Origin: Phoronis australis
Taxonomy: Eukaryota > Animalia > Phoronida
Reading direction: 5' to 3'
NCBI GenBank assembly: GCA_002633005.1
Contig: NMRA01000639.1
Span: 77,609-141,608 of the forward strand
Length of the DNA: 64,000 nucleotides
Position 1 is the stretch's first letter; the number at the start of each line of letters is the position of its first letter. A program made the translations under genes and the position numbers. Under the pieces are notes generated by a model. It searched no databases, was not told the origin of the DNA, and saw nothing but the letters and a program-made list of their open reading frames with translations. This document shows, in pieces, positions 3,994 to 33,351 of the stretch.

Positions 3994-6900
3994 GTAATTC
4001 CGTTGATAACTGTGACACAGGAACATGTTTAAAATTTTTTTAAATTTTCTTCTGCCCTCAGTCATGTTTTTAAGGTGCTATGAAATGATGTTCTTCCGAA
4101 AGTTGCTCGATTTAGTTAACCTACCATTATGAAACATGTTACGATAAAATTTCATAAATTTTGGCCAAAAAGATTGTCAAAACTGCTTCTTTCATCATTT
4201 TTTCAAGGGATTCTAACATTATTATGAATGTCCACTATTTTTCAGAATATTGTCTGGTGGTAACTGTAGTGCAGAACTAGTTGAACACGGAAAAGCTAAA
4301 TATGGTGGTACATCTTTTATGGAAAAATTGAGAAATAAAATCTCATTTGTTTGCCATATTTTGTCCTAAATTGGTCAGATTTTACCGTACACGTGATTTC
4401 TGGGCTTAAGGAGAAATAACATTTTATTAATCTTTCAGACCAGGCTGAAAAATTTGGCTTGTCCCATTAGTTTATTAATCTTTCGGACCAGGCTAAAAAA
4501 ATTGGCTTGTACCAAATTGTTCATTCCTTGCACTGTGACTGGTCTCTAGCAATTATGATCTGCCAGTCAGAAATTCTATCCCTACTAACAAACAAGCCGA
4601 GAAAAATTTTAAATTCTAGTAAATTGCCTAGATCAAAACCAACTTTTTTACAGAAGCCGGGTTCATAGCCATTGGAGATATTTCTTAAAAGGCGTGTGCT
4701 GATAATGTGTTACCAGTGAAACTCTGATAAAGGAGTGTAAGCCCCCTGGGCTTGATTGACATGTGAGGCAGAATGAATTGAAGGCAGGCTTGCATGCTGG
4801 CTATTCACTTAGTATTTTACATAACCTTCAAAAGTTGCATGAATGAAAAACAATTTAGACAACTGTGACAGGCAATCTGAATGCTTTAAACTAAATGCCG
4901 AAGCTCACTATGTTGTATACAATACTAGTTAGACGTCGGGATTTGTGCATACTTTCTGGGGCCCAAAATTAGAACTCCAAAATTCAGGTTAAAACAATTA
5001 AGTAGCCATGGTTTCACATGTCAAAATACCACCTCCTTCATCCTGGTACAAAAAAAACCCGCTTAAGTGTTGATATTACTGGTACTTTCGTTACTTGTCA
5101 GAATTCAAATATTGTCGTAGGATGAGAGCTACATTCAAACAATTCCTACATCTTGGATTAAACTGTCCTCTTTTGTGGAAGTAGGAAAACACTTTGAATG
5201 GTTGACCTACTTTTCTAAAGGTAGGGCTGCCGACAATTTATATACAGAACAGTGCGTTGCATCAGGGTTTCAATTTTTTTGTTGTCTGTCTTGCAGACAT
5301 GGTCAAACTTTATTCGCATCAGAATGGGGAAAACTAATCTAAATACGAAATAATGACTAACTTGGCACCAGTGGACAAAAGTGTGGCAATTGCTCTGCTG
5401 ATGCGTTGTATTGTGGCGCAACCACAGAGGGTGCTGCGGTCTCCCAGGATATGACTATTGAAATACATTGGGTGTTCCAAGATAAAAGTCACACCAATTG
5501 TGAACCTGGGACGTACATGGATATTTTTGTTTTTAAGTAAGGCATCTGCTTTCAGCAATGTCAAACTCCGACTTGCATCAAGGCAGCAGGGGAGATACTA
5601 GCGAGGATGGATCTGTCTGCTCCTCCATGTGATGACTTCTATACTTACGCGTGTGGGGGTTGGGAGAAGAATGCGCTACCGCCACCAGACAAACCTAAAT
5701 GGAATGCCTTCTCAGAGGTTTACCAGGAAAACATTGCAGTGCTTAACAAGGTAACAAAACTGCCATTGTTGTGCATTTTGTGTGCATTTATTTGGTTAAG
5801 GCGTTCTCTGAAAAAGCCAGCAGTTTATGGTAGTATGTATAAAGTGTATGTGTGTGTAATGTACAAGTTTTTTTTTGAGTGACATTTCTTTCCTGTACTG
5901 AGACATTGGTTGCGTATAAGTGAAACTGCTGTTAGTAACAATCACACTCAACTGTTGCATGACAATTAGACCTTACGTAAGGAATTTAATCCAAAAAGTA
6001 GGTTTTGGTTGCTATGAAAATACTTCCAATGTAGCAGCCATTATCTGGTCAATCTACCACCATCAGTAGTGTATAAAATTTTCTCTAGTTATGTAACACA
6101 GCCCTGACATTCAGAACTCATCCTCTTATTCACATCTATTGAAATTAAATAAATTGCTAGACATATTTATTTGACCTAGTCGCATTTGATTAGGCTCTAG
6201 CGATATTTGTCTTACCATTCATTGGTCAATTATACCACGGTTCCTCCATTGAAGTTTGAGCAGCTGTTACATTCCTGTAAGTTGAATAATTATCTTTGTG
6301 AATAAAATCCATTGTTTCATATTCTTAATTGCTTATCTGTCCTGTGCATCACCAGCTGATCAACAGGTTGTCACCTCCGTGTCCGTACAAGGGGAAGAAG
6401 TCGACGGCCATTTGTAAGGCCAGGGACTACTACTTGGCGTGTCAGAATGTTTCAGCCATTGAGCACCGCGGCAACGCTCCTGTACTGAAGGTATTGTCAG
6501 CAAATGAAGCTCAGAATTCACAACAGCAACATGGTGGTCGACTTGGTTGTATTTTGGGACAGTTGTTTCAGTCCAATGTATTTCAAAATTGCAGTAATTT
6601 TGCGAGATATTTTTAAGTGGAATTAATTTCATTAATATCAATGTCTCCATACAACTCAAAATAATATTGTCCTCCCTGTCGGCAGGCCTTGAAATTGTCC
6701 TTGTCGTACTACACACACAAACAACATTGAAAGCAACCAAAATGCACCGGCCTACGGTAGTGCTCCACTTATGACACACAAAAATAATTGCCAAAACTGT
6801 CATATGTCCAAGCTTCAAAGGCCAGTTACTTTTGCTACAAATAATGGAAACTGTACCAAATGTAACACAAAAAATACAGGCTTTTCAAACATATTTCAAG

Positions 6901-9900
6901 ATTTCAAACATGGCTCAGAGCTTTTCAGACTTGACGCAATGTTTCCAAACATGGTGAAAATATTTCAAATGCAGTGGAGGACCATCTTTGAATCCATGTA
7001 GGGAGAACAGTGAAATTATCACAACTAAAAATAACAGTGGAATAAGTTCTGGGATTATTTTGTCTACATTGCACTCTAACTGCCACCAAGACACTGTTGT
7101 ACTTCTCAATTGGATCCTGAATTTTCACTTTTCAAAAGAAAATTATACATCGTCATAGCTCAATTTTTTTCACAATAAACTTTTGATTTTTTTTCAGATC
7201 TTGAATTTCTTTTAACAAAGTATAAATGAAAACAAAGCAAATCTTGTCATTGAAGTATATAGGTGTCAACATAACGGTCAAAGTAGCTTTCAGCTTGCGG
7301 TTGTGCTCAGGCAAGCTCACTTTTATCAAATAATCATATGTAATTTTGTTCCGTATTGACTCTGCAATTGTTGATAGTCATATGTAATATTAATATATTG
7401 AACAGCTGTCGAAGGATTGTCAATAAGTGCTCGGCCAGTTATTCACAGAGGTTTAGTTACATTTAACAAGCTTTCATAAGCAGTTTTTTTGGGTTATTTA
7501 ACAGGGCAGCCGATGTTTTGGAGATTATCTTAAACAACACAATGGTTTGACATATTTCAAGTGTGTGCTAGCTGGTGTTTCTGGGTACCTAATTAATTGT
7601 GCATGCATAATTCCCGGCATCGCATACTTGTACTTGATTCTCATCTATCGTGTCTGCTTATTGGCCGACTGCTGTCACATGGTATGAACTACCAACCAGC
7701 TGCATGAAAATGATGCGCGCCATTTGGTAGTTACATGCATAATTAGTCAAAGTCAGCGTAATGACAATTTTCAATGAATCATCTGTATAACGGGCTGATA
7801 ATGTAAAGTTAAGACCAAAGCTTCAATTTTCCCAATTGAAATTTAATGTAAAATGTCAGTAGAAAATGTGAAGTGATCAAACTTCGTGTGGTTTTCTATT
7901 ATGTGTGCATTCGTGTTACATATATTTCATTTGCATAGTTCTCACTCTGTTGACTGTCTATTGAATCTGCAAGTTTTCCTTCCTATGAGTGTCAGTAAAT
8001 GTGACATTCGTATTTGAAAACTGCTCAATTTTCTAATTAGTGTTTTCATAACACTTGATATTATCTGCAACATTAAGACTTGATTTTCTGAATTAATTAA
8101 ACAGTTGATCATTCAGTGCCCTGTGTAATACAATGCCGTATTCAGCACTACCTTAAAAAAACTCAACTTTGGCCATTAAGGAAGCTTCCTATATTAATAC
8201 AGGGTCCCCAGCCGAAAACAACCATGGGATGGAGCCCCTTTGTTACATAGAGTTTATATAGGGGCGCCCGCCCGAATATGACCCAAGAACGGGGCTTATC
8301 TTTATTGATATAGATAGTCGCACTCTTTATCCACCAAACCAGAAATCCATCTTATTTGAATGTAAGCAGATTTTGAGTCCTTGTTTATTTGCAGGTTCAT
8401 AGCAACCTTAACTGGTCTTTTTTGTTTCAGTTCATCAAAGATCTCTACTCATGGACCTTGACGGATAACCCAGATTCTGGCCATTGGAATGAGAAAACGT
8501 GGAACTTTATTGATGTGTTGGTGAAGATGAACAGTTATGGTGTTTATCCACTATTCCAAGTTGCAATTACCACTGATGACAAAAACAGCTCTCAGAGCAT
8601 TTTGTTTGTAAGTCCTCTTCCCAGTGTCATTGCATTGTAACCATTTAAAGCCTAACTTCAACAGAATTTATTATTTTAGATGTATTGGGCTAAGCAGGTA
8701 GTCCTAGAAAAGCCTTAGTAAAATAAGAAAACGCAAATGTAAGCCCGGCAAATGATTGGTGAAGCTGCCTTTTCATGCCATGTTGTGTCACCGCGAGATC
8801 TTGGCACAAAAACAAAAGGGCAATAACAGTTGTATTGAATAGGGGTCTGAGTAGAACACCATTGTGTGATAGACTTTAAAGCAGCCATAAACCAATTTTC
8901 CATAAAAATGGCTTTTAGTTTAAGCTATGCGACATCATGAAATTGGTTTCCAATAGATCACTTGTGGGTTTCCAAAGTGATCAGAAAAGTGGGACCAAAA
9001 TGGTCGTGTTGTTTCAAAGCATCGCTCAAGGTCTATAGCTCTGTATGCGGAAAACCAACATGGTGTCTTTCGAGCCTGTGATAAATTCCCAGTGCGCAGG
9101 TTAGCACCATGGTGAAGTGGGTCAAAAATCCACCTCCTTGCTAAAGATCTCTTGTTATTTAGTCAAAAGAAGTGTGATTCCTGGGCATGAAAGACCTAAC
9201 AGTTCGTTACTGCTCGAGACCAGGCTCTTCAAGTTCACTGGTCACGGCGCGTTGTTGTATATGCCAGGTATGGTCTCAAAGAATTAAGAAATGTCACTTC
9301 TTGGTTATAAAACCAATTAAATCGCAGTAATCTGAGTAAGGAACAAGTTGATGCCAATTTCATCGATCAAAAGTTGATTTCTTTGAAATAATGCATGTTT
9401 ATGGCCGCTTTAATTAAACACGGATCCGTATTACATAACGGAAGTCAAGAATCGTGATCAGTAAGTTGTCACTGTTGAGACTTGCTGCCAGAAAACTTGA
9501 CCAATGCTGTGAAATGAGTAAGTATTGTGGCTGTTTATGCACTGTCGTCCAATCAGATCAGTGGTGACCATTTTGCTAGTTATGCCAATAAGGTCACAAG
9601 CTTAAGGTAGTTCTCTTATGTAGCAAGCATTATGGCTGACAAGTGAAATTCTATTTTGAAGATGAAGGAAGTTATAGTCTATTGCTAAGCATGGTTTGTA
9701 TTGTGTACGATGTCATGCAAATAATTTTTGGTAAATTTTCAAATTATTTGTTATAATCAGCCTTTTAAAAATGGATGTATTGCAATTTTGACTTTTATTT
9801 TTTTGTGTGAAATAAGAGGTTAGGAGAAGTACCATACTACAGCAAACTCCTTATGAGGTCTGTCATAGTACTTGCTCAGTTTTAGATGATCTGGTCAAAC

Positions 9901-12900
9901 TCAAAAGATACTAGCGTTATTAGATGCACCCTCAGTAATCTGTAGTTATTCAAGGTCAACTGGTTACCTTCGTTTTAAATAGTTTTGCATAATGTGATCA
10001 AAGTTTTTCAACCTACGACATATGCCAGGAAAGTGGAATTTTTGCCAAATTTCTCAACAAGTTTTCGTGTGATTAGCGTTATAACTATTGCACGTCTGCC
10101 ACTAAACAACACAGGACAAGCTTGTCAGAATTTGTTGCGATGTTGTTAACTTTGGAAAAGCTTGAAGATTTTTTGCCGTAACAAATCTTGATGAAATAAC
10201 CGCTGGTACCTATGTGTGCGTTATTTAGTGACGTTATTTCCTTTCCAGATGGAACAGAATGGTCTGACCTTGGGTGATACGCGGGAGTACAATAATTCAA
10301 ACTCTGAGAAGTACCACACAGCTTTCGTTGGCTTTCTCACCAGGCTGGCCACGTTGCTAGGGGCAACAAATGTCACAGATGTCATTCAGAAGGCCGAGCA
10401 GATTTGGGACTTTGAGAAGAAACTGGCGTCTGTACGCACGTTTGATTTTTTCATATTGGAGTTTACTGCAGACAGGCTCATTTTTGGATATGCTCAGCGA
10501 GCGGGTTTAAGAAAAGATTTACTGCATTTATGCCCAGCGTGTACATTTGGGAAAAGTGTGGTTGAATCCTAAAACTTTACACAATTTCATAAGAAATGGA
10601 CATTAAAACTGAAACTAAAGTACATTTTCAGCCATGAACTCCTACCTATGAGGGTATTAACTATCTTGGTCTCTAATTACATGCTGCTTACAGTATAAAT
10701 ATACCTGAGCTGATAATTTCCGAATGCATGTCTGGGTTTTCCTACACAATAGCAATCTACCAGCATATAACAATTACGTAATGTTTTTATCTGATATGGA
10801 GCCTCACAATTCATTTGCCACTGGTGGAATACACAGTTATGGTGAGAAATTTCAAAACCAATAGAAGAAAACGTGGTTACTTAAAGTAGCTATGTACTCG
10901 CATTCTGTCCAGAAAGCAAACTTTTGATTTATTTTGCTATAAAATTGGTTTCAATTTGTCCCTTTCTCGGATGAGAAATGATTTTTTTAGTTTGGAAAGA
11001 ACTGCCAGATTAGTATTGCTGGAAATCATGCATGGTGCAAAGAATGACATGCGGTGACAGGCCTACTTGCAGAGACTTGTCTATCAAAGCCCTGATATGA
11101 CCTCAAATTTAATTAAAGAAGCGGTAGAGATGGAAATTTAAATGAAAAGTTAGCTTTTGTCATGGAAGTTGGGTTTACAGCTGCGTTGAATGTGAAATTT
11201 CTTAAAATTAGTTTAGCTGAACGCAAACGACAACCTGAACAATGGAATTAAGAGGAGTGACTTTACACTAATAATTCATTCATACTGTTTTGTGTTCTTT
11301 AAACCACTTTAAATTTTGATACCCTGAGTGTAGAAGTTCCAAAATCTGTATTATCTTATTTGAATTAATGTTTATGACATTATGTTTTGTCTTCATTCAG
11401 CGAGTTCTTGTTTCCTTCAGATATTTGTTCCCAAAGCTAAACTTCAAGACGCTGTGGCCACATATCATAAAATGACTGTCGCTGATGTGACGAAGTTGAT
11501 GAACAGCACAGTAAGTTTAGTACACATGGCACCCATCGGTCGCATCATGTGATCCACAATCATTTCAATTTGGATGAGTGCTATCCCAACTGGGGTGCGA
11601 TCCTGGGACTTTCTGCATTCCGTATGGATGCTGTATGTCTACTGACCGCGTGTTGATCACAGAAATCCAAATAGACTCCTGGCCAAAAGCGTGGACCTCA
11701 CATATTTTCAGACTTGAAATGATTAAAGGTCTTGTGATCTGACCAACATATGGCATTTAACAAGATTAATAGTGTTTTATGCTCCAATATTGATGTGATG
11801 ATTTAGTACAGCGTATTATGAATGTTGTAAAATTTCTTTTATTCGTTTATGAATAGGGGTTTCCAGAGGGAGGGAATATGGGCTTCCAGTTTGCTTTGCA
11901 TTGCTGTATTGAAAGAATCTAAAATGCCTCCTATGTTTGCTCTTGTGATGATGCGCGCTGGGACTCTTCTAGGATTTTAAGATAAGTGTGGGTCCAAATA
12001 TGCAACGGGTAATCTCTTACGGCCAGGGTGTAAATGGGAAATGGAGTTCAACTTCGGATACAGTTTAGACTGGAAGAAAATAATTATGTTCATTACAAAG
12101 GACCCCAACATCAGGTGGTTCCAGTTTAGACTTATGCACAGGATTGCTGCGTCAAATACCTCATTAGTCAAAATCTAGTTTGTGACTCCAATTTATGTTC
12201 CTTTTGTGATAAAGTTTCAGAAAAATGTACCTTTTCTGGGAATGCAGTTACATACTAGGGAATTTTTGGAAGGAGATCAAAAGACTACTTCAAAATTGCC
12301 ACATCCAAAATTCCGTATTATTTTTTCTCACAATTTACTAGTTGTTATCCGTGGACTTTACGAGACTCAAGATTTTCTATTTAATATTTTATTATGGTGT
12401 TACCAGCAAAGTTATATACAGGGAGAGATGTTACAAAAAGGTACTTTATTCACAACTTCATGGTGTTCACTAATACTATGCTGCAAAAATGTAACAACTT
12501 TGAGTTGGACAACTTTTCTGGAAAATGGGAAAATTTTAGAAAACATATAAATTCAATGTAACACAGGTCCTTCTCATAACACGTGGATGTGGGTGTTTTT
12601 TTTGGAATTGTCTGTTTATAGTATAATAAAATTTTGAAAAGTGTTGATTAAGCTTGGTACATTCTAACACTGAGTTGTCAAGTGACAATGGTATGATTGT
12701 CTGAACTATACGCTGCGAAACACAAAATTCTTTTGATTGAGGTCTTTCTTAAAAACAAAACACTATGAAGAGTTGTATTCTGTTTCTTTAAATGTTGACC
12801 CGTAGCTTTTAAAATCGACTTTGATTTCAGATAAACATAAAGAAGTATTTTGATAAAGTATTCCACACCAGCATTCCACCAACAGAGGACTTGTTAGTGC

Positions 12901-15900
12901 CCACGCCAACATATTTCACAGCATTAGCTGAGGTGCTCCGTACTGTAGATAAAAGGTTTGTACGGCACTCAACTTTCAGACAATGTCACGGAAACACATC
13001 CTAAGCTCACAGCTAGTGCAACTTCTAATGTTATGGTAGGACTCAGGTGTGAGCTAATAGTGAATCTTTTCTTGAGTTTGTATTTGTGGGAAGAAGTAAC
13101 ACTACAATAACTACTTACCTAGTACCTACCTAACCTCTCCAAGCCCAGGGTGGGTATGAGGGTATGTCAAAACTTGCACCAGTCTGCTCTATGTCTCCTA
13201 ATGATCATGCTAGTGGAGGTCACATTCTGAATCGCAGCTTTCACATTCAGCCGTTTTTCTCTAAGGCCCTTTTACTCGAAATCGAATTCGATTTTTTTGT
13301 CATTTTCTGTTCTACTTTTGTGTGAACAAAAGATAAGTCCTCTGTTTAGACTCGGTGTGAAAAGATGGCTGTAAAGCTCCGATATCTTAGTGAAACAGGC
13401 TTCAAACATTTGCTTGTAATTTGAGGTAATTTATGCCAGTTTGGTATAGTTAGGCATCTTGAAGCGTATTCATGCTGAGCGACACGTAGAATGTGGTTTG
13501 CAGGGTGCTTGCCAACTATATGATGACACACGCTGTGTTCAGTGTATTGCCATATCTACCCGAGGCTTTCATGGAGGCAGTGTTAATATTAAAGAAGGCC
13601 ACCATGGGCGTCTCTAGTCTTCCGCCACGCTGGGAGATATGTGTGAAAAGGATTGACGATGTCTTTGGATTCGCTACTGGTGCTCTTTACGTTCAGGAGA
13701 AATTCAGTCAAGAAAGCAAAAATCGGGTAAGAATTATAGTCTGATCATGGTTTTAAAAATTGTAGTGCTTCCTCTGCTTTTAAAGCTACTAAACACAAAG
13801 TACACACACACACACATGCACACACACATGCACACACACATGCACATGCGCGCACACACATGCACATGTGCGCGGACACACACACACACACATGCACACA
13901 CACACAAGCACACCCAGAGGAAAAATCCATTTGGTGTTTGGACTTTTACACATCTGATTGACAGCCTCGTTACTTTTAAATCGTTACCAATTCTGACCAA
14001 AATTATTTACGTCAATCTTTGGTATTAAGATATTGGCAGTTCTTCAAAGGTTTGGAATTCACTTATTAACTTGGTAAGAAACCGTGTGAGATGATTTTAG
14101 ACTTAGATCTGTTGAACGTCTCGGTGCAAAAGTGTCTTGTTTGGAGACCCAGCCTGTAGACTAGAAGTTGTTATTTATTATTTAACTCTCTGCTTGGCAG
14201 CATATCATAAGCTATGATTACAAAATGCTAAACCCAATTTTCAGTATTATTCATGAAGTTAAGTTTGTGAGTATCACAGCCTGGAAAATCTTTTACTACA
14301 AGTTGACACCCGGATGTTTTCAGACACGTTGTTGCATGTAAACAAGTCATGTATTTTACATGTGTTCCACTAATACTTAATACATTTACTTGAATAAGTA
14401 CTGCATCACAGTTTGTGTACTTTTCAAAAAAAATTGTTGCTTTCAATTCAATGTTGATAACTTTGATATTGAAAATTGTCGAGAGTTTGCAAGCGAACAA
14501 CAGTGAGAATTTCTCTTGCGACTCCAAGGCAGTGTTCAAATGTGAACGATGGTGTTTTTGCTACAGTGACGCACTTTTGTGGCAGTCTGCTTCACATTGC
14601 AACAGTGATCATGGCTTACATGAAGTGCTGAATGTTCGTCTTGCCCTCGTACTCGTGTGACCAGAAAAACGAGTCTTTATTTTATTCTCCATTTTTGCTG
14701 TTGTTTATCCTGCATTTTACTTGAAAGACAAACATGTTCCCGTCCTGTGAGGTATGTATGTGACTTTCTCAAGAAAAGTAAAAATGTATGCTTCTACCTG
14801 TGAAATAATTTTCTTTCAGGCTGCTGAAATTATAGAAAATGTGAGACAAGCTTTCATTCAGGATCTGCCTGGCGTCAAGTGGATGGATGACAAAACACGC
14901 AAAGTGGCAGCTGAGAAAGCAAGGGCCGTCATGAAGATGATAGGATACCCTGATTGGATACTTGATCCAGCTGCACTGGACAAGTATTATGACAAGGTTG
15001 TTGTGTTGTTCCTGTAGCTTAATGACTGATATGGGTGCTTGTTTATACACCAACGTATGTGGTCGCATATTGCCGTCATCTTTTCCAAGCCTCTGGCACC
15101 TGCTGCTCATCTCTATAAAACCTGCGAGGATCTTCGTTAAAGTTGGAGATAACAATGGCTTTTGGATGGAGAGGATTATTGTTGTGCCCCTAGTGGCAAT
15201 TTTATTTTACGTTTCGGAGTTCCTTGACAGAATTTCATGAAATTAAGTTCCTAGTAATGGGATGACAATGCCTTCTCATTTTTGAATGCTACCCGTTTCA
15301 TGAATGGATAGTTTCCGACTAATGTCATTGATGACAGGTACATTTATGTAGCGCGCGCTTCCTGGCCACGTGCTTTTAACACTAGCTATAAAGCTTTTTT
15401 ATTAGTCTTTGATTCGCGGTTTTCACGTGTACAAAGAAATTTGGATTCCAATTGAAAGCGGGAAATATCTACAATACAATCCTGTTGACAAGTACACTCC
15501 TTCTGTTCTGAAAGGCCAGACCATAGTGGGACACTCGCAAGATCAGCAAAACTTTTGTGTTCGTTTTGGGGCACGGTGAAATACCAACATAGTGGCGAGG
15601 CTCGTGGTCTACAAATTCTGCGCACAATGATTTTTTTCAGGATTGATATTATTGATAAATTGAAGATGTTACTGTAGAATTTTAGGACTGTAGGTAAGGC
15701 ATTTTTCGCACGTACACTTTCATGGGCTTGGCGCTTTTTTTAGCAAAGTCTGAAAACGCGTGGGGGGCGCTTATAGGAGCATGGGCAGTTATTAGGGCGA
15801 ATACGTTACCTATTTTAAGTCTGCTTAGAATTTCAGTAATTTTCATGGATGCATGCTTATGTTCTACTGTAGATTTCGCGTATATTTAATGTGTTTTGAT

Positions 15901-18900
15901 GAAGCTAGGTACTGTTACTGCTGCCGTTGCTGTCTTGTCTTTGTCTAACAACCAAAATTACTCCGTTTCCAGATCTCAGTGACAAGTGACCAGCAGTTTG
16001 AGAATGCTATTCAGGCAAAGATTTTCTTCCACAACAAAATGTTAATGAAAAGAGGCAAGGTACCAGACAGGAAAGAGTAAGTTGCTGAAAACGATCGATA
16101 ACTTAAGCAATTCACCGGCGGTAACGTCAATCTCATTTTGGTAATTCTGCTTTCGGCACACAAAATGTTAAAGATTTTCAATAAAAGTATAAAATTAAGA
16201 TAATTTTAATTCCTGGCAGTGTACTTGTGACCAAAGGGTAATTGATGAAATTGAGATTACCGTATTTATGACATACTTTGCAGTTGAAAACTCAAAAATG
16301 ACAATTTTAGCATTTACGTTCCTGGTGTGATATCAAAGATGTCATCATAACTTCAAACCACAAAACTTTCATGCGGTAGTTCCTCCTCCATGTAATTGCA
16401 TATCCTGCTTATTACAAAATTTTAGTTGAACTTCTCTACTTTTTCCTGTTCAAATTGATGTTTTGAGATGACAGTTGTACAGCTACAAGATTGCTGTTGC
16501 ATTCTTAAGTTATTCAAGAAACTTTATGGATTAGAAATTTAGGCATAGTGAATCATTTGAATGCTCGAGGTTTTTATTAAATTTTGTTTCATTCTATGAT
16601 TTGTCATCACAATTGTCACCATCCCTGTCATCATCGTCTTCGTTGTCATCATCATCTAAGCCTGCTTCGTCATCATTGCCATTGTCCTGCTGTTTCTAAT
16701 TTCCTCTAGTTCCGTCATGCCCAGAATTGTACGATGACGTTTTGCTTTCCTCAATTTCCAACTGCTGGTTTATGACCCTTGGCAATTTCCTCATTATGTT
16801 ACGTGACTAGCAGAATTAATTAACTACTTTCTAGTTTTAAGTTGTGAAAGTCACATTTCTTGTCCAATTTTCAAAATCCAAAAACCTATTAACCATATGT
16901 ACTTTTCTCAAGGTATTCAAATATGGTGTTTACAAATTTACAAAATCAGTATAGTTCAGTAGGAGCCCTTAGTTAACACAAACTTCCTTGAAAACACGAC
17001 TAAACTTTTTGCTTGAAAGCTTGATTAGCGAATCGGTATCAAGCTTTCAAACAAAAAGTTTAGTCGTGTTTTCAACAAAATTTTCAAAGTGAAGATTTAA
17101 AAATTTCAAAATTGTTGCCCAAGCGTGTTTATGTTAGGCAATTTGATAACTGAATACCCAAGTTAATATCCGAAGAATGATGACATCACCTGATGGTTTA
17201 TTTGAAGATAGCAGCCGTTGTTAAGGTTAGGGAACTGGTCGAGTTGCTCAAACTCGATCAGTGAGGTCTTTTGATGTACAAATAACTATTTTTATGATCG
17301 TGATCACCAGGCGTCCCATTTAAACATTTCACCAGCATGTTCTTTGTCTCACCAGGTGGCACATGATGCCGTCCACAGTGAACGCGTACTACAACGCAGA
17401 ATATAACGAGATCGTCTTCCCAGCGGGCATCCTGCAGAAGCCGTTCTACAGCCCAGACTTCCCCACGTAATGATTTTACTAAGCATTCAATTAATACATT
17501 ATGAATTTAAGTTTTACTGCTTGTAATATGTGAAAAGAGGATAAACTGACTCGTCATTATTGGGTATTGTCAATCCTGCTATGTCGATTATTGTCGCACC
17601 AATATGACTGTATTGTTGATTCTAGGGCCCACATATATGGCGCTATGGGGTCCATCGCTGGCCATGAGCTGACCCATGGGTTTGATAATCGAGGTTAGAT
17701 TGATGGGCACCGTCACCTTCCTAACCGTGCACCATACAATAACACGATGTGGAATGCTTCACGCTTGATCCGTACAACTAAATACTAGCTAACTAATTTC
17801 ATTATAACTAATCAAACTGTGGTCTTGCTCCAGCAAGTGAATTTGGTAGACAGTGATTTTTGGACTTTGTGTGAAACAGGAAAATACATGTCTGAAGTTT
17901 TTCCATCACCAGGTCTAATCTCCGAACTCAAACTCGAAAATATTTTCAACATTTTCGGTTCTGCAATATTTCAGTATGAACTCAAGGTAATTGTTATTCT
18001 TTGCTTAAGTATGTCGTGATTTACAGATGTGAGTTTCCAGTCTGAAGTTTGCACTTCGTGACCCATAGGTTCGAGTTACAAACTTGAGTTGTAACTCAGG
18101 TGTTCAGACTTGTGTCATCAAGTGTGAGTTAGGATTACACATTCGTACACGAACTCTGTCACAGACTTATCAGCAATTAAAAAAGTGGAAAGGAAACCGA
18201 CAAAAATTAACTTCAGGTTAGATTGATTTTGAGTTCAGAAATTATACCTTGTGCCCGAAAATTCAAATTGAAAACATTTTATAGAACAGAGCACATTGAT
18301 TTCCTCGAGATTTTTATGCTCTTGAATTAGTCGATTTTTACTTCCCGTGCTCACCTCTTCTTGCAAACAAAATAGATGTTGTCTCGGATACTGGCATTTA
18401 TGAATGTGAGTGTTGTCAGAATGCTTGCTGTTGACCGTTCATAGAACATGCCGTGCGTTTAGAAAAGTCATTTTTCTGAAGATCTTCCTTATTCACACTA
18501 CATAATATCCTCCTAGTTTGGGGCCAGTTGGCAGACTGTGTTAGTGTAGACTTGCAAAATGGCCGCTATTTAATGGGATGGTCACACAGAGTGTTCCCGT
18601 TGGTAGTACCTACCCGCACAATGCTGGTTATTTGTGTTACTTAAGCCAATATTGCTTGCTGATAATTCGTTGTCACCACCACTCTTACTAAATACACTTT
18701 GTAATAATGCTTCTTTTATATGTTAACCTGCCTTCTTTCACTAAAATAACTGATGGTGTTACCTACCGTTACAAATTTGTTCCTTTCTCTGATTAGAAGG
18801 GATTTCTGGGTTTGGGAAGAGTCGACTGGTTGGGTATTGCTTGAGACTCAAAGCTCAATGAGTTGACTTAACTCTTCTGGTTGTTATATGAGTGAACATA

Positions 18901-21900
18901 GTCTCCAGCACTGTTCAGTTTTTCCCAATCCCAGAAATCATTTGCATTGAGTAAGGAACGATTTGAGACCATTTTTTTGAAGGAAGGCGACATCATTGCA
19001 CCTTTGTTCTCATGACCTTGACCTTGTTATTCTCACTTTCACTGTTTTCTGTCCAATACAATGCAGCAATTTTTAGTAAAGCCTAACAAACAGATGTTCC
19101 AGTCTCCGGCCATCAATTGTACATGGTACCTCAAAAATCATGGAAAATTCTGTTTCCCTGCTGTGAGGGGTCATGACCTCCGTCATGAGTCATCACGTTG
19201 GTGAATTACGCTTGCACTTGGTCATTGTGACGTAATTTGCTTGCGTTCAGTTGTCATGACATTAAAGTTCTAACAATTTCTCTAATAAATTCTGGGGTGT
19301 CCTGTATTTATCTTGCATCCAGCCTCTGTTGGCATTATAGTCTTGTGAATAACTCTGACTTCTGGTTTATTATTAGTCAATTGAGGACAAGGTCAACTTT
19401 TTTTAGATCAGCTGAAAATAAAAAAGTTTGCTTTTACAATCATGATCCCAACTGGCTTAACTTGAGTCATGATTCAGAAGATGAAGGTGGATTGTGGTTT
19501 GCTAAGCCCTGCTGCTCACTATGTGACTCAAACATTGGTTGGGTTTACAGTACAGCTGTGCTTCGAATCAATTTTGGCATTCCATAAAGGTTATAACCGA
19601 AAAGGAATAGTGTGCAATTGACATCATTGAGCAAGAATTGATTAAATATTTGTCCCAAAAGTAGTACAGGCGATGAGAGAAATAACAGACAGCGTGAAAT
19701 GATGAAATACTCATACGAATCATAGCTTAGTATCAATGGTGAAAAATCTGACCAGATTGCCTCATTTTTGAGGAGTTCATGATACTCTATTGCTAATGGA
19801 GACTGAATGTGAAACAAGTTCTGTTCACAAAATGACTTAGCTTCAGGCTGCATTACTGTCAGAAATCAGTCACTGACAAGAAAGCTCAATTTCTGCTTAG
19901 ATGGAATGAGTAGAGTCACGAGGTCAAGAGAATAACAATGCAGTGCTATGAACTTTAACCCTGAGGTTGACCCCAATTTAACCTATTCTGCTTACAGTGC
20001 ACATAACTTTGGAGCTATGGGCTCGGTTTCGGGACACGAGTTCACACATGGCTTTGACACACGCGGTAAACACACTATCAGCTCACAGCCAAGATTTGGC
20101 CTAAGATGAATCAACTCACACACCCAATATTCTCTGTTCACTCATATGCTAGAGTGGAGACAGACCACCAAGCCCCAAAACTGTACTCATTCTATGGGAA
20201 ATTTCACCGGGGGTGTTATGTAGACCCAAGAATCTCACCAAGAAGCCAGATCGCTCGAGACCGTGCATAATAACAAAAGTCGGAAAGACGAGTGTTACGC
20301 TAGTATGTTCACAGCCATACTAGCAAAAGCTAGCAAAATGTCGGCTATTGAAAAGAGTGGTGGGTGAGGTTGAAATTTTAATTAGCACACATTGCTCTTG
20401 TTTCAAAAGTAATGAACTGTTGAACCAAATAGGTTCTTGTGTGGTCTTTTATAGACCAATATCTCTCGGGGCAGATCTTGGCTTGTGTTGTATTTTCGCA
20501 AGATGATCAAGTCTGAAACACAAATGACACAATGTGCGTTATTTTCTAAACTCTTATAATAATCCAGCATGTAGTGTGTTGCAGTCTAATGTTCTAGGTG
20601 GCATGTTTGTGTGTGAGCACCCCAGCACTTTTGTGTGATCCTGTAATGAGAAGTAACATGACTTGTGACGAGTATTGTGTCTAGTGTATTGTTACAACTA
20701 TAATTGTTTTAATCAGTGCAGTAGTAAAAGTTAAAGTTTGTAATTGGCATTTATTAAAAAGTAAGTTACTATAATTGTTTCCTTTTCCCTGTGTGAGAAA
20801 AGCCTGAAAAGGTGTTGAATACTTGGCTAAATGTAACATACTGTTCCTGTGCTAAATGTAATAATTGTAAGTTAAAAAAATTGATTTAAATTTTCCTGTT
20901 ACATTCAGTGTGTGCATAATTTGTAGTGTTTTGCTAATAAGTCATTTAAAACATCTTTAAGGTAGCAAATATGACAAATTTGGCAATATGAGGAATTGGT
21001 GGACAGAAAAATCGGAAAAAGAATTCAAAAAGAAGACATCCTGCATGGAGAAACAATACGACCAGTATACCTTTGGTGGCCACAAGGTTAGGACACTCTC
21101 TGGATTTTGTTAACATTGTCTTCTTTAAAGTCTCCTTTGGAACTGTGGTAGTTTTAAAATGAAAATTGTGAACATCTGCTTGACTAAAAATTTAGAAGGA
21201 TTTCACAGCACTATAGTCTGATATGATTTTTCATGCATGATTTTCAACATAATTATGTTCAAATTGGGTAAGATGATTATCGTACCTTTTGACAAAATTG
21301 AGATATTTGGTTATCTTGGAAAGACACTTTTCAAATATTAATTATTCTTGCCCTGGCGTTTATTTGCTATTCATGAAAAGAATAGATAAATGTAAATGAC
21401 ATGGCAAAAAGAACGCACCTTGTTTCTGCATTAACTACCATTGAGCAAACACAATATGCGACTCGTTATTGCTTGTAGTCAGAGTCATTTATTCGTGCTT
21501 GTTGTATGGACGTAAATGCAGTACCAAGGTAGAGGCCTTGGTGCATGTTCGTACACCCCTGCAGGTCAACACTAAATAACGTGGAAAAAATGTCTCCGAG
21601 ATAACCAAGGAACTGTAATTTGATTCCCCTTTTGAGTTTTTTTAGATTACTCGATAAAGATGATTATCTTTGAACATGTCAGACAACCTCCTTGTCAGTT
21701 TTTATACAGTGTTGCTTGCATACTGAATACTAGGCGTTTGACTTCTGCTATAGGTCAATGGCCTAACCACCCTTGGTGAAAATATTGCTGACAATGGGGG
21801 CTTGAAGTCCGCTTACAAAGCCTTCAGCAGCTGGAACACCAAACATGGAATGCATAAGCAAGTGTCTCTACCAGGACTGAACATGACTGACAGTCAGCTC

Positions 21901-23806
21901 TTCTTTCTTGGATTTGGGCAGGTAAGAAAGAATAGACCCTTGCGCATTGCGACAAACTTTGATGTTGTCCAACTGGGATAAAGGGCGATGTAACTGCATT
22001 TCAAAGTACTGAATTTTGACTGCCATCTTGTGATAAGCTTATTGTCTAGCTGTCAACTTTGTGTACACTTATCTTGAGATTTTCTGAATCTGACCGCATA
22101 ATTTGCCATAAAGTATCACACACTGTCATACATTCTAGGTGAAATTAAGGATCTGAAAAACTTTTCTTCGTTGTTCATTGGGAGGCAGTGTGCCCTAGTG
22201 TGATGGGTGCAAGCTTCTGTACTCGAGATCGTGGGTTCAAGTCCCATTGGGTCACACTGCTAAACCCTTGAGTCAGGTTTCTAGCTTTTCAGCTCGGTTT
22301 TAACTACATATTATTAAAGCATAAAAATGGTTCCCGGTGATCAGTGCATTGGGCCCACTTGCATGACCTGCGCATGTCTGGTACAACATTTATCAGACCC
22401 CCTGCAATATTTTTTTTTCATTTGGACGAAATCCGAAAGAAACTGATTGGAGGTAATCTACAGGGAGCATCCAATTGTTAGAATTTAAAGAAACTAGAAA
22501 ACTGTTGTGCAAATACATCAAACTACTGACTCCAACAATATGTTTCCCTGGTTCCCATGTATTGTATACATTTGTTCAAGAAGACCTCAGAGGAGTCTCT
22601 GAGCTAAAATGTTGATACTTTGTCAAAAGTAGTCATAAAAGTTGTTATGACTCTTACAGTCACCATCGTCCTAAGTGTTAACTACAGAATACAAGGAAAC
22701 TTTAAATCTGTGCAGATTGACAACATCTTGAGGGCCCTCTTGGAAAGCAGTGCTGTCACTGAAGAGGCCACCCTCATTTTAAATATCACAATAATAAATC
22801 CTGTCTGCGAAGACCGAAATCTTGTAGAATTAAGTTGAAGGCTACCTTGGATTTTTGATCTTTTAGATGTAGTATTGGGCTAAACCAGATAGTCCCAGCA
22901 AACCCTTAGCAAAGTAAGAAAGTGCAAGTTTATTCACTCAAATGTTGGCCCGTCAAATGATAGGTGAAGTTGTTTTGTTGTGTCATATTGTGTCACCATG
23001 AGAACCCAGCACAAACAATCCAAGTCAACATGAGGTCAAGATACAGTTTAGAGAACTTGACTGGATTCCTCCGACACTAAAATAACAAGTCTACGTTGTA
23101 ACTTCGATGAGTGTAAATGAACGTCAGTGTAAATGTCTAAGGAACACATTAAGTAATTGAGTGTTATAATATTGTAGATCTGGTGTGCATACTACACCCC
23201 TGACTATGCCCGGACGTCTCTACTCACCGATGAACATGCTCCCCCTCATGTCAGGTAACGTGTCTTGTATCTACACCATACCAATAACGCGTATATCCAG
23301 TTACACTGAGCATGCACGACTACTATGGCTGTTACCATGTTGGTTCTAACATTTGGGGGACCCTAAATCTGGTATTGACTTGGAGGCTCTCCTTCGCCAC
23401 AGACTACATTCATCTCTTGGTGTTTGGGTTCTCATGTCCTTAATATTCCAGTTTAAAGATTGTTAGATCTCCCGAAGGTGTACAAAAAGTTTGGTGACTT
23501 AACTAGTATGAACCTGATGAAGTCCTCGCAACGTAGCCATCTCCACGTACCGTAAGTCCAGTAATAGATTTATTGATTCTTATACTATGAACCAAAATTC
23601 TTTCACTTGCTCTAGTTAAAGGTAAGAATTAGAAAAAGCCCTTGTTCCACTTGTGTCTGGTAACTGTACTATAATCAATTAATAAACTGTGAACTCTTTT
23701 TTACAGAGTTGTAGGTGCTCTCTCAAACAACCCGGATTTCGCTGTAGCATTTGGCTGTAAAACTGGCAGCAAGATGAACCCAGAGAAGAAGTGTCAAGTG
23801 TGGTGA
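3863..23806 (+). CDS. M13 family (neprilysin / endothelin-converting enzyme-like) type II membrane zinc metallopeptidase; multi-exon gene whose 5' exon(s) were not located
   Basis: Hand-spliced GT-AG exons 3863-3993, 5556-5750, 6356-6490, 8431-8607, 10249-10431, 11421-11510, 12831-12955, 13504-13726, 14820-14996, 15973-16076, 17356-17466, [17626-17693 OR 19998-20065], 20962-21086, 21754-21921, 23178-23254, 23707-23806. All phases are compatible and give ~728 aa. Motifs: N-terminal TM anchor, [30 protein letters not shown](L/F)[22 protein letters not shown]-terminal CQVW*. Confidence 0.96.
4422..4511. repeat. Short direct duplication (~41 bp, two copies)
   Basis: ttttattaatctttc(a/g)gaccaggct(g/a)aaaaa..tggcttgt occurs twice. 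Confidence 0.8.
5556..5750 (+). CDS. M13 peptidase exon (N-terminal Cys cluster)
   Basis: ttcag| [39 protein letters not shown]...VLNK |gtaac. Confidence 0.95.
6356..6490 (+). CDS. M13 peptidase exon
   Basis: accag| LINRL...[25 protein letters not shown] |gtatt; matches the M13 KA..YY.SC.N...IE..G..PL pattern. Confidence 0.92.
8431..8607 (+). CDS. M13 peptidase exon
   Basis: tttcag| FIKDLYSW...[20 protein letters not shown] |gtaagt. Confidence 0.92.
8675..8812 (+). repeat. Dispersed repeat; second copy at ~22861-23015
   Basis: Shared ttttagatgt..attgggctaa..g.tagtcc.ag.aaa.ccttag.aaa.taagaaa and tgtgtcacc segments. Confidence 0.7.
8880..9409. mobile_element. Non-autonomous DNA transposon (Kolobok-like MITE)
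   Basis: TTAA|AGCAGCCATAAAC ... GTTTATGGCCGCT|TTAA: short terminal inverted repeats, AG...CT termini, TTAA on both sides. Confidence 0.7.
10249..10431 (+). CDS. M13 peptidase exon
   Basis: ttccag| [14 protein letters not shown]...[10 protein letters not shown] |gtacgc. Confidence 0.9.
11421..11510 (+). CDS. M13 peptidase exon
   Basis: ccttcag| [30 protein letters not shown] |gtaagt. Confidence 0.9.
11980..12640 (+). mobile_element. Decayed 3' end of an L1/Tx1-clade LINE (ORF2 C-terminal zf-RVT/CCHC region)
   Basis: Translation across stops and frameshifts: KWEMEF...[41 protein letters not shown]...LFWECS...FW; AATAAA near 12625. Confidence 0.8.
12831..12955 (+). CDS. M13 peptidase exon
   Basis: tttcag| [11 protein letters not shown]...[19 protein letters not shown](R) |gtttgt. 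Confidence 0.88.
13504..13726 (+). CDS. M13 peptidase exon
   Basis: ttgcag| VLANYMM...PRWEICV...[21 protein letters not shown] |gtaaga. Confidence 0.95.
13796..13915. repeat. Compound (CA)n/(CATG) microsatellite
   Basis: cacacacacacatgcacacacac...; explains the spurious HT/CV-rich ORFs here. Confidence 0.95.
14820..14996 (+). CDS. M13 peptidase exon
   Basis: tttcag| [12 protein letters not shown]...WMDDKTR..AAEKA...IGYPDWI..YYDK |gttgtt. Confidence 0.95.
15973..16076 (+). CDS. M13 peptidase exon
   Basis: ttccag| [34 protein letters not shown](E) |gtaagt. Confidence 0.9.
16988..17075. repeat. Near-perfect 38-bp inverted repeat with a 12-nt loop (intronic hairpin)
   Basis: ttgaaaacacgactaaactttttgcttgaaagcttgat / atcaagctttcaaacaaaaagtttagtcgtgttttcaa, one mismatch. 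Confidence 0.9.
17356..17466 (+). CDS. M13 peptidase exon (NAYY motif)
   Basis: accag| [36 protein letters not shown](T) |gtaatg. Confidence 0.97.
17626..17693 (+). CDS. M13 peptidase catalytic HExxH exon, alternative copy A
   Basis: ttctag| (T)[22 protein letters not shown](G) |gttaga; 68 nt, phase 2 in, phase 1 out. Confidence 0.9.
18730..18988. repeat. Long imperfect inverted repeat (fold-back) between the two alternative HExxH exons
   Basis: Nested complementary blocks: gccttctttca/tgaaggaaggc, caaatttgttcctt/aaggaacgatttg, gatttctgggtttgggaa/ttcccaatcccagaaatc, tgcttgagact/agtctccagca. Confidence 0.8.
19998..20065 (+). CDS. M13 peptidase catalytic HExxH exon, alternative copy B
   Basis: ttacag| (T)[22 protein letters not shown](G) |gtaaac; 68 nt, same phases as copy A. 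Confidence 0.92.
20962..21086 (+). CDS. M13 peptidase exon
   Basis: tttaag| [41 protein letters not shown] |gttagg. Confidence 0.95.
21754..21921 (+). CDS. M13 peptidase exon (third zinc ligand, GENIAD)
   Basis: ctatag| [24 protein letters not shown]...[18 protein letters not shown] |gtaaga. Confidence 0.97.
22183..22290 (+). mobile_element. tRNA-derived SINE head (degenerate)
   Basis: A-box-like tgccctagtgtg and B-box gggttcaagtccc at tRNA-like spacing, followed by a SINE-like body. No proper cloverleaf. Confidence 0.6.
23178..23254 (+). CDS. M13 peptidase exon
   Basis: ttgtag| [25 protein letters not shown](R) |gtaacg. Confidence 0.95.
23707..23806 (+). CDS. M13 peptidase terminal exon
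   Basis: ttacag| [35 protein letters not shown]; canonical M13 C-terminus. Confidence 0.97.
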
Positions 23807-26800
23807 GGCGGAGAAACGTGATCATCCTTCTTGTTATAATTATGGTGGGAAATGTTAAGTTACTTAACAACTAAATATTCCAAGGAATTAGATCTGAAGA
23901 TGTCACTTTTACAGTTAGAGGCAAAGTTAGTCTGCGTATGTTCGCTGACCTTTTTATGCGTAGCAGAAAACCCATTATGCTCAAGGGATCGTGAGAAATT
24001 GCATGCTTCACAGCAGACGAAATTTCCAGTCACCAAATGGTGTCATTCCAGGCAGGTGACCACGTAAAGCAGTTTTCTGACTCATCGTCTGCTCATCACT
24101 GTGCCCAGATGTAGCGCCTTCTGGTGATTGTATTTTGAGGTTATTACCAAGAAAGAAAACTTGTCAGTCCTTTGTCTGCTCATGCTTGCGTCAAATGATT
24201 GATAACCGATCCCTATTCATAACGCAGACTTATAGACTCACTACATTTAATTTGTCAATCTAGCTTTTAACGTTGCTGTAATCTGTTACATTCCATAAAA
24301 TTCGCTGTTGCAATGTAAACTGAAATGTCACACAATTCATTACACACCTGCCATCTCAGTCTATTTGTGAAAAGGTTAGTGGACAGTTTCTTTCCTGTGG
24401 CATAGATCACCATTTTGTAGGTTTCATGTAAAAGTGACTCTGAGCGCTGAAAAAGCATGAAAGCTAGGGAAAATTTGTAAACATATTCGAAGACTAAAGT
24501 CTTAAAGAAGACTGTATGCCGTTGTGAATCTATTTTGTTATGAAATAGTAATTTTGTTAATGGTGACAGTTCTAAACCAGATTGTTGTCTTGCATCCTGT
24601 TTTTCAACTTTGGCAATTATCTCCCATGCTGCATGAGTATTAGCCAATTTGTAAATGTTTGGTTTGGTAATACTAGCACAGTACTAAAAGTGAATAAATT
24701 TTAGATAAAATGGCGTAGGTTGTAGTGGCGGCGACTAATTCTCTTTAACTATTAATATCTAATACTGCTTGCTTGCTTCAAAACCCTCCGGCGCAGACAA
24801 GAAGGGGCGCTGACAAAGTATTCTGTCTGTTTCATTGTTTACCTTTTGACCTACATTTGCATTGTTCTCCATTCTTATGAGTATTGTGAATGCTTATTAC
24901 TGTAAACATAAACCTATGTGATGAATGACTCATCCTAACTTTTGGATGGACACTAATGCGCATTTCTCACAATGTGTACTGTGTTATTTAATGGCTTGAC
25001 TGAATTTACTGTTGTGTGATTGGAATAATTAAGTGTATATTTTGGTGGTTTATGGTTCATTTATTATGTTTATTTTGAATGCTGTATTCAAGGGATTCAA
25101 CTTCTTCCATTCCCATTATTTTAGATATATTTTATGTAGTGTGAAACTGGGAGGTACGTTTTATTTTTATTCATTTTGGTTTTTGGTGCTTTGTTTAGAA
25201 CTGACATTATGTTGGCCTTTTACTTTAAAGTCATGTAATGGGAATGTTTTTCTTGATTGACCTGAAAATGGTCCTGGAGTGTTATGTTAACTTGAATCTT
25301 GACAAGAGATGGAGGACTGTGGTAAAAGTTTGCTTTCATGCATAGTTTTACTAGTTAACGTTTAGATTGTGATACGAGCTTAACTCAGTGTAAAATGGCA
25401 TTGCTTGAGTAAGCTAAAAGCAATGAATGACTAATAGTGAGTACCAGTAGCTATACTCCTCATGGGCTGCACGAGTGTTTCATTAAGAACATTCTTATCT
25501 TGTGAATACTTTTTTTCTCAAAACCTATGTTTCCATTCTTGTGTACTGTAGTTCGTTTTTTACGCATTCTTTTTCTCGTGAACCCGGTTCTTTCAAAACT
25601 CTAGCGTGAGGTACAAGACAGCACATGGCCGGTATTGTTTCACAACTATTTGCATGCCTACATTGAATACAATTGTGATTCACTAGCACGTTTGTGCAAT
25701 CCATGAGGAAACCGTCTGTAGATTGCTAAGAATTTGTTAAGTATGTGCTGTTAGTTCTGAGTGAAGAATTCTCTGTGCCAGGACTGGGTTGCATAAACTT
25801 CGAATTTATCCTTTGGTTAACATGTAGCTTTTCCTACTGGCCTTCAGTTGGGGACAGCTGCAAGGATGCATTTTTGTGCATCTTTTGTAAGATAAAGAGT
25901 TGCAAAGCAACTCCAAATTACTTAACAATTAATTGGAATAGATTCTGGGACTGAGTTGCTCAAAATTGAAATTTTATTGTGTTGTAAAATTTCATTGCTT
26001 AGGTGATGTCAAGCAACTGGTCCTGATTGGTTAATTGTTGACGAGTTTTGACGTCTGTGGTGTGTTCAACAAGGTACTGTGTTGTGAGTTTGACAAAACA
26101 CAAGCTGCAGTGTAATGCAGATCTTGTTTAATTTTGAAAGTTATGTAACTTTATTAGTGCGCAGTTTCAGTAGCATGGTGGACACTGCTCAATATGACGT
26201 CTGCTCCGGAATGTTGACTTACGGAACAAAATGATACGTTCCATCACATAAGTCAAAATTTCTCGCTACATAGGTCTCAAAAGACACTTGCCTTTAAGTG
26301 AGTGCAGTCCAGATGTATTTGTGAACACACCACTTTATCAAAGTGTGCAGTATTGTGTTTAGTTAGTGCTGCTACAGTGCTGGGCACACGCAACACTACG
26401 TCATGTAGCTTTTAACATGTGAATTGAAATTTACCTCAACTCTTAGTTATTACCAAAAAAATTGGTAAATTTTTGAGTATTTAAACTGTAACATTGTGTT
26501 AAGCCTCTGAAATTAAAAATGTGGCAATTGTAGCAATAATATTATTTTTGTCCAAAATTGAAGAATTTTTACCGTAATAATACTTATAACAAAATATGGC
26601 GATTCTTACAATGTTTCGACCATCATTCTGATCACACAAACACCATGTATTGCCAAATATAATAAACGGTGAGGCTTATCGACTTATTAAGTGTTATCTA
26701 CATCACTGCGAGAATCCTTATATGACGTTATATTCAGACCCCTATTCAATACCACAGCTTTCGCTCTTACATTGTTTGCTATGTGTTCTCGCAGTGATGA

Positions 26801-31990: not shown

Positions 31991-32385
31991 CTGTAAAATT
32001 CAAAGCATCATGATTTAAGACATAAATCCATTTTTCATGCACAGAGAGATTGCTTAGGAGGTATTAATAATAATCAATAACATATAAAAGTTAGTTCTGG
32101 GGCAACAAATGACAGATTAGATTGTGACAATTCTGCACAAAAATAATTATTACTCTTTTTCACTTTTCTATGCCCAGTTTTCAAAATATTGTTCCATGGT
32201 AACCATGAAAACGGAAAAGCATTACTTACTTTAGTGTAACATATCTCTCAAGAAAATAATGAAAAAATATAATATCACCTTTCGGTCAAATTACGTCATA
32301 AGCTGGTGAGACTTTGATGCACAATAGACGACAAGGTAAACAAATGCATGTTTGACAAATATGTACAACAACATATGTCCTCAAG

Positions 32386-33351
32386 TGTAACACTGCACAA
32401 AATGTTGTGACGCTGCACACAATGTTGTAACGCTGCACACAATGTTGTAACGCTGCACACAATTTGTAAGGCTTCACACAATGTTGTAACACTGCACACA
32501 ATGTTGTAAGACTGCACACAATGTTGTAACACTGCACACAATGTTGTAAGACTGCACACAATGTTGTAACGCTGCACACATTGTTGTAACGCTGCACACA
32601 ATGCTGTAACGCTGCACACAATGCTGTAACGCTGCACACAATGTTGTAAAACTTCCAACAATGTTGTAACACTTCCCACAATGTTGAAACACTGTACACA
32701 ATGTTGTAGCACTGTACACAATGTTGTAACACTGCACACAATGTTGTAACACCGTACACAATGTTGTAACGCTAAACACAATGTTGTAACGATGGACACA
32801 ATGTTGTAACGCTGCAAACAATGTTGTAACGCTGTACACAATGTTGTAACGCTGCACACAATGTTGTAACGCTGCACACAATGTTGTAAAACTTTCCACA
32901 ATTTTGTAACACTTCCCACAATGTTGTAGCACTGTACACAATGTTGTAGCACTGCACACAATGTTGTAACGCTGCACAGTGTTGTAACGCTGCACACAAT
33001 GTTGAAACATTGCACACAGTGTTGTAACGCTGCACACAGTGTTGTAACGCTGCACACAATGTTGAAACGTTTAACACAGTGTTGTAACGCTGCACACAAT
33101 GTTGTAACGCTGCACACAGTGTTGTAACGCTGCACACAATGTTGTAACGCTGCACACAGTGTTGTAACGCTGCACACAATGCTGTAACACTTCCCACAAT
33201 GTTGTAACACTTCCCACAATGCTGTAACACTGCACACAATGCAGTAACACTGCACACATTGCTGTAACACTGCACACAATGCAGTAACACTGCACAAAAT
33301 GCTGTAACACTGCACACAATGCTGTAACACTGCACACAATGTTGTAACACA
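32386..33351. repeat. 20-bp minisatellite (CACAATGTTGTAACGCTGCA, ~48 units) in the zinc-finger gene intron
   Basis: Visible tandem array with point variants and occasional 18-19 bp units; generates the spurious CAVLQHCVQ ORFs. Confidence 0.97.

Follow-up and report, generated by a model that had tools for sequence, protein, structure and literature searches.

M13 metallopeptidases set the lifetime of peptide signals. They usually diversify by gene duplication (PMC2259306). In KHK, PKM, ACOX1 and ACSL6, homologous exons of the same length are used one per transcript (PMC9741552, PMC8373072). Residues that bind ligands tend to lie outside such duplicated regions (PMC9741552), and nine events affecting catalytic sites are described (PMC7954323). 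Here we examine a predicted M13 peptidase gene of the phoronid Phoronis australis that has an exon pair of this kind. It lies in a window of 64,000 nucleotides (assembly GCA_002633005.1, contig NMRA01000639.1, positions 77,609 to 141,608 of the forward strand; coordinates below count from the first letter of the window). The exon encoding the HExxH motif of the active site is present in two copies, and both are expressed. As we read the sequence, this single gene, with two old tandem HExxH exons, probably gives rise to two full-length, predicted active and modestly different enzymes.

Results

The catalytic exon is present twice

Translation of the window in six frames yielded seven HExxH strings, of which only those in exons A and B stand in an M13 context. 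Exon A (17626-17693, plus strand) encodes a zinc-binding helix with HELTH and matches PF01431 with an E value of 4.9e-5; exon B (19998-20065, plus strand) encodes one with HEFTH (PF01431, E 1.6e-5). Both are 68 nt long, have AG and GT flanks and identical phase, and encode a 22-mer each. They are identical at 45 of 68 nucleotides and encode the same residue at 16 of 22 codons, and 11 of these 16 codons differ synonymously. Their mutual score is 96; for the 14 other exons of the gene that we tested, the best second match anywhere in the window scored 36-47, and none of these neighbours (0/14) is duplicated. The introns flanking A and B were no more similar than shuffles in any of three comparisons, and no third or decayed copy of the exon was found within 17467-20961.

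Use of A alone or of B alone leaves an open frame of 728 codons up to the normal stop at 23804-23806. In spliced models, inclusion of both leads to a TGA at 20989-20991 and skipping of both to a TAG at 20963-20965; these stops precede the last junction by 340 and 366 nt, respectively. An original prediction, made from the sequence alone, had described the two copies with their edges, lengths, phase and peptides, the codon counts, the two premature stops and the dissimilar surroundings, and our recount agreed with it throughout.

By the Nei-Gojobori method, A and B show 15 differences over 15.8 synonymous sites and 7 over 50.2 replacement sites (pS 0.95, pN 0.14, Fisher p 9e-9); identity falls to 6 of 22 at third codon positions and is 19 of 22 at both first and second positions. 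Because synonymous sites are saturated while pN is low, both copies are old and constrained, as had been proposed from the pattern of synonymous change.

Transcripts carry one copy or the other

Three stranded raw-read RNA-seq runs (X2, X3 and X4), which come from one study and are counted as one source, share their species label with the contig run X1, a partial match containing 0.18 of the words. They were read to 18-19% each and placed on 15800-24200. All four joints expected of alternative use were seen in each run. The shared upstream exon (17356-17466, plus strand) is joined to A (17466>17626) by 16, 13 and 24 reads in X2, X3 and X4 (53 in total) and to B (17466>19998) by 6, 4 and 9 (19 in total). 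The shared downstream exon (20962-21086, plus strand), which carries the premature stops of the skip and double products, is joined to A (17693>20962) by 16, 9 and 45 reads (70 in total) and to B (20065>20962) by 3, 2 and 10, plus 2, 5 and 0 reads with a one-letter variant at 20963 (22 in total). That variant, which is synonymous and sits just past the downstream acceptor, occurs in 7 of the 12 reads joining B to the downstream exon in X2 and X3. All constitutive joints of 15800-24200 were seen too, and the X1 contig carries form A. Form A, the major form, has 123 of 164 joint reads, or about three quarters of transcripts, and form B has 41 of 164, or about one quarter (0.26, 0.33 and 0.22 of joint reads in X2, X3 and X4). 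B is spliced in all three runs, and since transcripts carry either A or B, one gene makes two predicted enzymes.

Neither a joint from A to B (17693>19998) nor a skip joint (17466>20962) is among the best 15 of 16 joint rows, the remaining row being less supported and joints with fewer than 3 reads in every run going unlisted. If the exons were independent and every product stable, about 53 joints from A to B would be expected. The claim that exactly one copy is used is supported in steady-state RNA. The locus also shows the features by which PMC5740500 recognizes homologous mutually exclusive exons: reads from each exon bridging the other (3/3 runs), equal length, shared phase, homology and, among those 15 rows, no reads joining A to B, a last point that the source waives where the double product frameshifts, as A plus B does here.

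The introns around the two exons (all plus strand) are those before A (17467-17625, 159 nt), between A and B (17694-19997, 2304 nt) and after B (20066-20961, 896 nt); the first and the last are supported by RNA joints, and splicing of the middle one alone is not among the joints listed. The latter two show low sense-strand cover in each of the three runs. Nine bins wholly inside these cassette introns have a mean sense depth of 2.3, 2.1 and 1.4, compared with about 0 in the repeat-free bins 16081-16642 and 21139-21700 of nearby introns, which suggests that the cassette introns are removed late, or possibly detained.

These reads also bear on whether B could come from a collapsed paralogue or from the other haplotype, set in tandem by the assembly. 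The assembly is imperfect elsewhere, with near-identical blocks around an N at 46775-48725; in RNA, B and A nevertheless share their flanking exons, the shorter arm of reads across the B joints reaching 71 and 69 nt, and synonymous sites between the two are saturated. Sense reads cover all nine cassette-intron bins in X2 and X3. A variant at 17674 inside exon A, synonymous in the frame as read, is present in 33 of 54 reads in X4, and two exon-A alleles thus occur there alongside expression of B, a point that would not be decisive if the sample was pooled. A mis-assembled paralogue, which the original prediction had named as a possible refutation, is on these grounds highly improbable.

Competition and decay as a candidate mechanism

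Several known ways of enforcing exclusion were considered. Steric hindrance does not fit an intron of 2304 nt between A and B, and the AG-free zone ahead of the B acceptor spans only 30 nt, branch-like sites lying at -20 to -43. A mismatch of U2 and U12 sites is not supported: the U12 donor pattern is found in 0 of 16 donors. As for competing RNA pairings of the Dscam type, with docking and selector sequences, no intron duplex exceeded dinucleotide shuffles in any of three intron pairs (20, 20 and 6 shuffles). A docking candidate at 20720-20735, pairing with 17506-17521 or with the B acceptor region (-16.9 and -10.4 kcal/mol), was rejected; the introns concerned reach -20.6 kcal/mol at best, a value that 15 of 20 shuffles equalled or beat.

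The mechanism left is likely protein-guided competition together with decay of frameshifted products; in human, 60% of mutually exclusive clusters are of a length that is not a multiple of three (PMC5740500). Competition between the exons probably sets the choice, A lying near the upstream donor and having the stronger donor site (score 5.0, against 0.3 for the weak donor of B, on a small matrix from the gene's own 14 donors). Exon choice is likely to be slow, because the cassette introns keep low sense-strand cover. Products with both exons or neither would probably be removed by nonsense-mediated decay, owing to their premature stops.

Decay might even do all the work, A and B being simple cassette exons whose double and skip products are cleared afterwards, possibly in a way that sets the enzyme level. 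This account concerns the splicing step and is compatible with either reading of the proteins. It draws on the position of the wrong stops, well upstream of the last junction, and on the lack of a steric block, of U12 donors and of a duplex above shuffles, and it has to explain how some 53 expected joints from A to B dropped below the listing floor in all three runs. Nonsense-mediated decay is usually incomplete, and independent inclusion would waste many transcripts. We regard decay alone as unlikely.

The two forms differ around an unchanged catalytic core

Positions 4-21 of the exon align to neprilysin chain positions 521-538, that is, to residues 574-591 (offset 53). Mapped on human neprilysin, the equivalents of Met579, His583, Glu584, His587 and Asp590 do not differ between A and B. 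Six other positions do (A/B): Ile/Asn573, Tyr/Phe574, Ile/Val580, Ala/Ser581, Leu/Phe585 and Asn/Thr591. On an ideal helix, 573, 580 and 591 point toward the catalytic side and 574, 581 and 585 lie on the back face.

The S1' pocket of neprilysin is lined by Phe106, Ile558, Phe563, Met579, Val580 and Trp693 (PMC11997989). The helix before HExxH, which the original prediction gave as contributing to S1', holds Met579 and Val580; of the residues listed, only Val580 differs, as Ile in A and Val in B. S1' is described as relatively invariant, with specificity residing mainly in S2' (PMC2259306), and the S2' residues named in PMC11700742 are not encoded by the swapped exon. The further proposal, that the six substitutions confer different substrate or inhibitor preferences, emerges weaker than it was put, with the zinc ligands and catalytic Glu the same and three changes on the back face. 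With the catalytic residues the same, the lone S1' change conservative and specificity attributed to S2', the six changes are likelier to tune the enzyme than to switch it, and the copies may also be equivalent.

In the reading that we favour, of two modestly different enzymes, Ile/Val580 and Ile/Asn573, on the same helix face, would slightly reshape the floor of S1', and Tyr/Phe574, Ala/Ser581 and Leu/Phe585 would repack the back of the zinc-binding helix. Together the six changes would tune, rather than switch, the enzyme, in kinetics or in specificity. Changes at Val580 affect the specificity of neprilysin, and the residue at 585 is Phe in PHEX; a literature search turned up nothing on either point. 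A more ambitious version, which we hold only tentatively, is that of a neuropeptide-degrading peptidase that would switch its whole catalytic helix by cell type and so have two substrate or inhibitor profiles, making this the first M13 active site chosen by splicing and not by gene duplication.

The copies might instead be functionally equivalent, each retained because a defect in it would cut the enzyme made from its sizeable share of transcripts, with their differences as tolerated drift. Besides the unchanged catalytic residues and the placing of specificity in S2', outside the exon, this account has family variation on its side: among 82 distinct HExxH blocks of relatives, Tyr and Phe occupy position 574 in 32 and 46. 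It fits less well with the residues peculiar to each copy. At exon position 3, A has Ile (3/82) where 64/82 relatives have Asn, and B has the atypical Phe15 (2/82) and Thr21 (1/82). A redundant copy could also be lost at no cost by one splice-site mutation, yet both have persisted until synonymous sites were saturated. Equivalence is in our view doubtful.

Several observations nonetheless weigh against two distinct enzymes, and some of them speak for equivalence. The sole S1'-listed residue that changes, 580, is Ile in A and Val in B, a conservative exchange between residues that are both common among relatives (Ile in 12, Val in 65 of the 82). The argument from helix faces relies on an ideal helix, and residue 591 is probably past the helix end. 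The share of B does not differ between runs (chi-square p 0.41), so that regulated use is not apparent in these samples. At steady state, RNA does not distinguish true exclusion from decay of the other products. Finally, none of 80 metagenome loci has two copies, 44 having a single block and 36 lacking one, and among listed members each gene has a single block in the Lingula, oyster, Biomphalaria, Sinanodonta, Gigantopelta, Haliotis and Mytilus sets and in the cephalopod, Amphiura, starfish and Apostichopus sets, the multi-member sets being mostly of ECE orthologues outside the gene's own clade.

The duplication appears confined to this lineage

Some residues common to A and B are rare or absent among the 82 blocks: His2 (0/82), Arg22 (2/82), Ser9 (7/82) and, at position 11, a small residue (Ala in 1, Ser in 2). 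These shared rarities make it likely that copying took place within this lineage, though long enough ago to saturate. In Lingula, all four isoforms have a single HExxH block. A 68-nt HExxH exon with AG and GT edges was found in 11 of the 44 metagenome loci that have a block; eight of the 11, which may include repeated species, also have both flanking exons and carry one copy each, and four of these eight match the gene's clade best. The comparison suggests that the duplication is lineage-specific and absent from the relatives examined.

Close relatives were sought in several ways. A search with exon 13502-13726 gave none among 87 candidates at E 1e-10, and the best full-length match in a representative library reached 51% on that exon. 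A profile search gave 35 matches, all distant. Exon 21754-21921 gave 90 matches at 55-68%, and the 80 loci on metagenome contigs reached up to 68%. The search of relatives and the substitution count that had been proposed as checks thus gave a divided answer: constraint on both copies is borne out, and two copies were seen in no relative examined, the closest named protein being 49% identical.

A quick tree places the gene in an invertebrate M13 clade

Homology and splice signals define 17 exons on the plus strand, from 3863 to the stop at 23804-23806. The first (3863-3993, homology only) contains a hydrophobic segment that aligns with the anchors of relatives and is likely a type II membrane anchor. 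The start codon is in a further upstream exon, for which no candidate was found under a strict filter; by arithmetic, contig record 1 of X1 extends about 165 nt past the modelled 5' end. The M13 N-terminal domain is encoded by eight plus-strand exons. The first four (5556-5750, 6356-6490, 8431-8607 and 10249-10431) are placed by homology only; the last four (11421-11510, 12831-12955, 13504-13726 and 14820-14996) likewise by homology, with loose read ends matching the last donor. PF05649 matched all five exons scanned within 5556..14996. Further plus-strand exons are a constitutive one at 15973-16076, joined by 16076>17356; the shared upstream exon, which encodes VNAYY and the Ile558 and Phe563 equivalents; and, beyond the shared downstream exon, a constitutive exon at 21754-21921 with GENIAD and the third zinc ligand, the Glu646 equivalent (RNA joints and Pfam). 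They are followed by a constitutive exon at 23178-23254 with the Trp693, His711 and Arg717 equivalents (RNA joints; its 25-residue piece alone has no Pfam match) and the last exon, 23707-24200, coding to 23804-23806 and then 3' untranslated, with read cover at least to 24200, the end of the mapped stretch. Of 12 exons scanned, 11 matched PF05649 or PF01431, and seven pass the curated cut-off singly. Both isoforms have the HExxH and GENIAD zinc set, VNAYY and the His711 and Arg717 equivalents; His583, Glu584, His587 and Glu646 are the zinc and catalytic residues named for neprilysin (PMC11700742), and VNAYY is the ECE-type form of its motif (PMC2259306).

The closest named protein is the Lingula anatina 'endothelin-converting enzyme homolog' XP_013417582.1 (P0223), at 49% over 721 residues. 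In a quick tree of 40 chosen rows with a midpoint root, the gene falls in a 16-row invertebrate clade (SH-aLRT 99), adjoining Lingula (83) and outside the ECE and neprilysin orthologues; it did not group with ECE-1 or ECE-2 orthologues in that tree. Named members of the clade are molluscan, brachiopod and hemichordate. The clade, which includes P0223, P0216, P0012 and P0007, is labelled ECE-like in databases, yet lies outside those orthologues in the quick tree.

Other features of the window

Many reads of both strands fit in part to intronic repeats at about 22190-22400, 22730-22800 and 16834-17083. Of these, the first resembles a tRNA-derived short interspersed element, and the last has a 46-nt inverted repeat at its end. 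Two long open frames on the plus strand (41858-42928 and 43749-44609; PF03189) form an otopetrin proton-channel-like gene, and a minus-strand open frame of 639 codons (30147-32063) encodes a C2H2 zinc-finger array. An element at 38748-39905, with inverted repeats of about 228 nt at its ends, is probably a non-autonomous DNA transposon; its THAP match, at 39558-39734 on the minus strand (E 0.047), is weak and below cut-off. Blocks of 200-290 nt are repeated at 99-100% identity within 46775-48725, around a single N at 47486, and are likely an assembly overlap artefact. Tandem arrays lie at 32357-33300 (20-nt unit) and 57380-58500 (31-nt unit), the latter flanking a gap of 344 N.

Discussion

The original prediction knew of no described case in the M13 family, and our searches of the literature and of human and fly catalogues agree with it. 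No M13 case of a duplicated catalytic exon was found in the mostly open-access full texts searched. In the human catalogue of PMC8373072, ECE1, ECE2, MME, PHEX, MMEL1, ECEL1 and KEL are absent and PKM, ACSL6 and KHK present. Five of those seven names are absent from ten supplement files of PMC5740500, in which ACSL6 is present. The fly list of PMC9741552 includes cac, Mhc and svr and no Nep gene. The supplement of PMC7954323 was checked without a positive control, and supplement copies may be incomplete. PMC8791509, the one paper found to contain both 'neprilysin' and 'mutually exclusive exons', has them in unrelated passages.

Diversification in the phoronid gene is confined to a stretch of 22 residues, among them the catalytic Glu and two of the zinc ligands, where duplicated alternative exons tend not to occur. 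A and B amount to a natural experiment in which six residues vary and the rest of the enzyme stays the same. The pair allows tests of how a metallopeptidase is tuned by residues behind or beside the HExxH helix, and of why two catalytic exons are kept by selection. Should the isoforms turn out to be equivalent, the gene would be a neat example, of minor weight, of a splicing type already known.

With human neprilysin, ECE-1 and the Lingula ECE homolog, the gene shares domains and motifs. The 68-nt HExxH exon is itself shared with metagenome loci (11 of 44) and is single-copy in the eight that have both flanking exons; the Lingula isoforms have a single HExxH block (4/4). The Drosophila gene svr encodes a zinc carboxypeptidase, carboxypeptidase D, of another family and fold. 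It is in the fly list of genes with tandem-duplicated exons (PMC9741552). Drosophila CG42249, a nucleotidase-like hydrolase with duplicated exons and likewise of another family and fold, changes catalytic residues, unlike the gene here (PMC7954323). In KHK, PKM, ACOX1 and ACSL6, as here, ligand-binding residues are kept and their neighbours changed, and in KHK the catalytic Arg is kept in both forms (PMC9741552). Most events of this type in human are ancient and shared, whereas the one described here appears lineage-specific. In contrast to those four genes, two metal ligands and the general base, which form the heart of the active site, lie within the exon swapped here: a known type of splicing at an unusual place.

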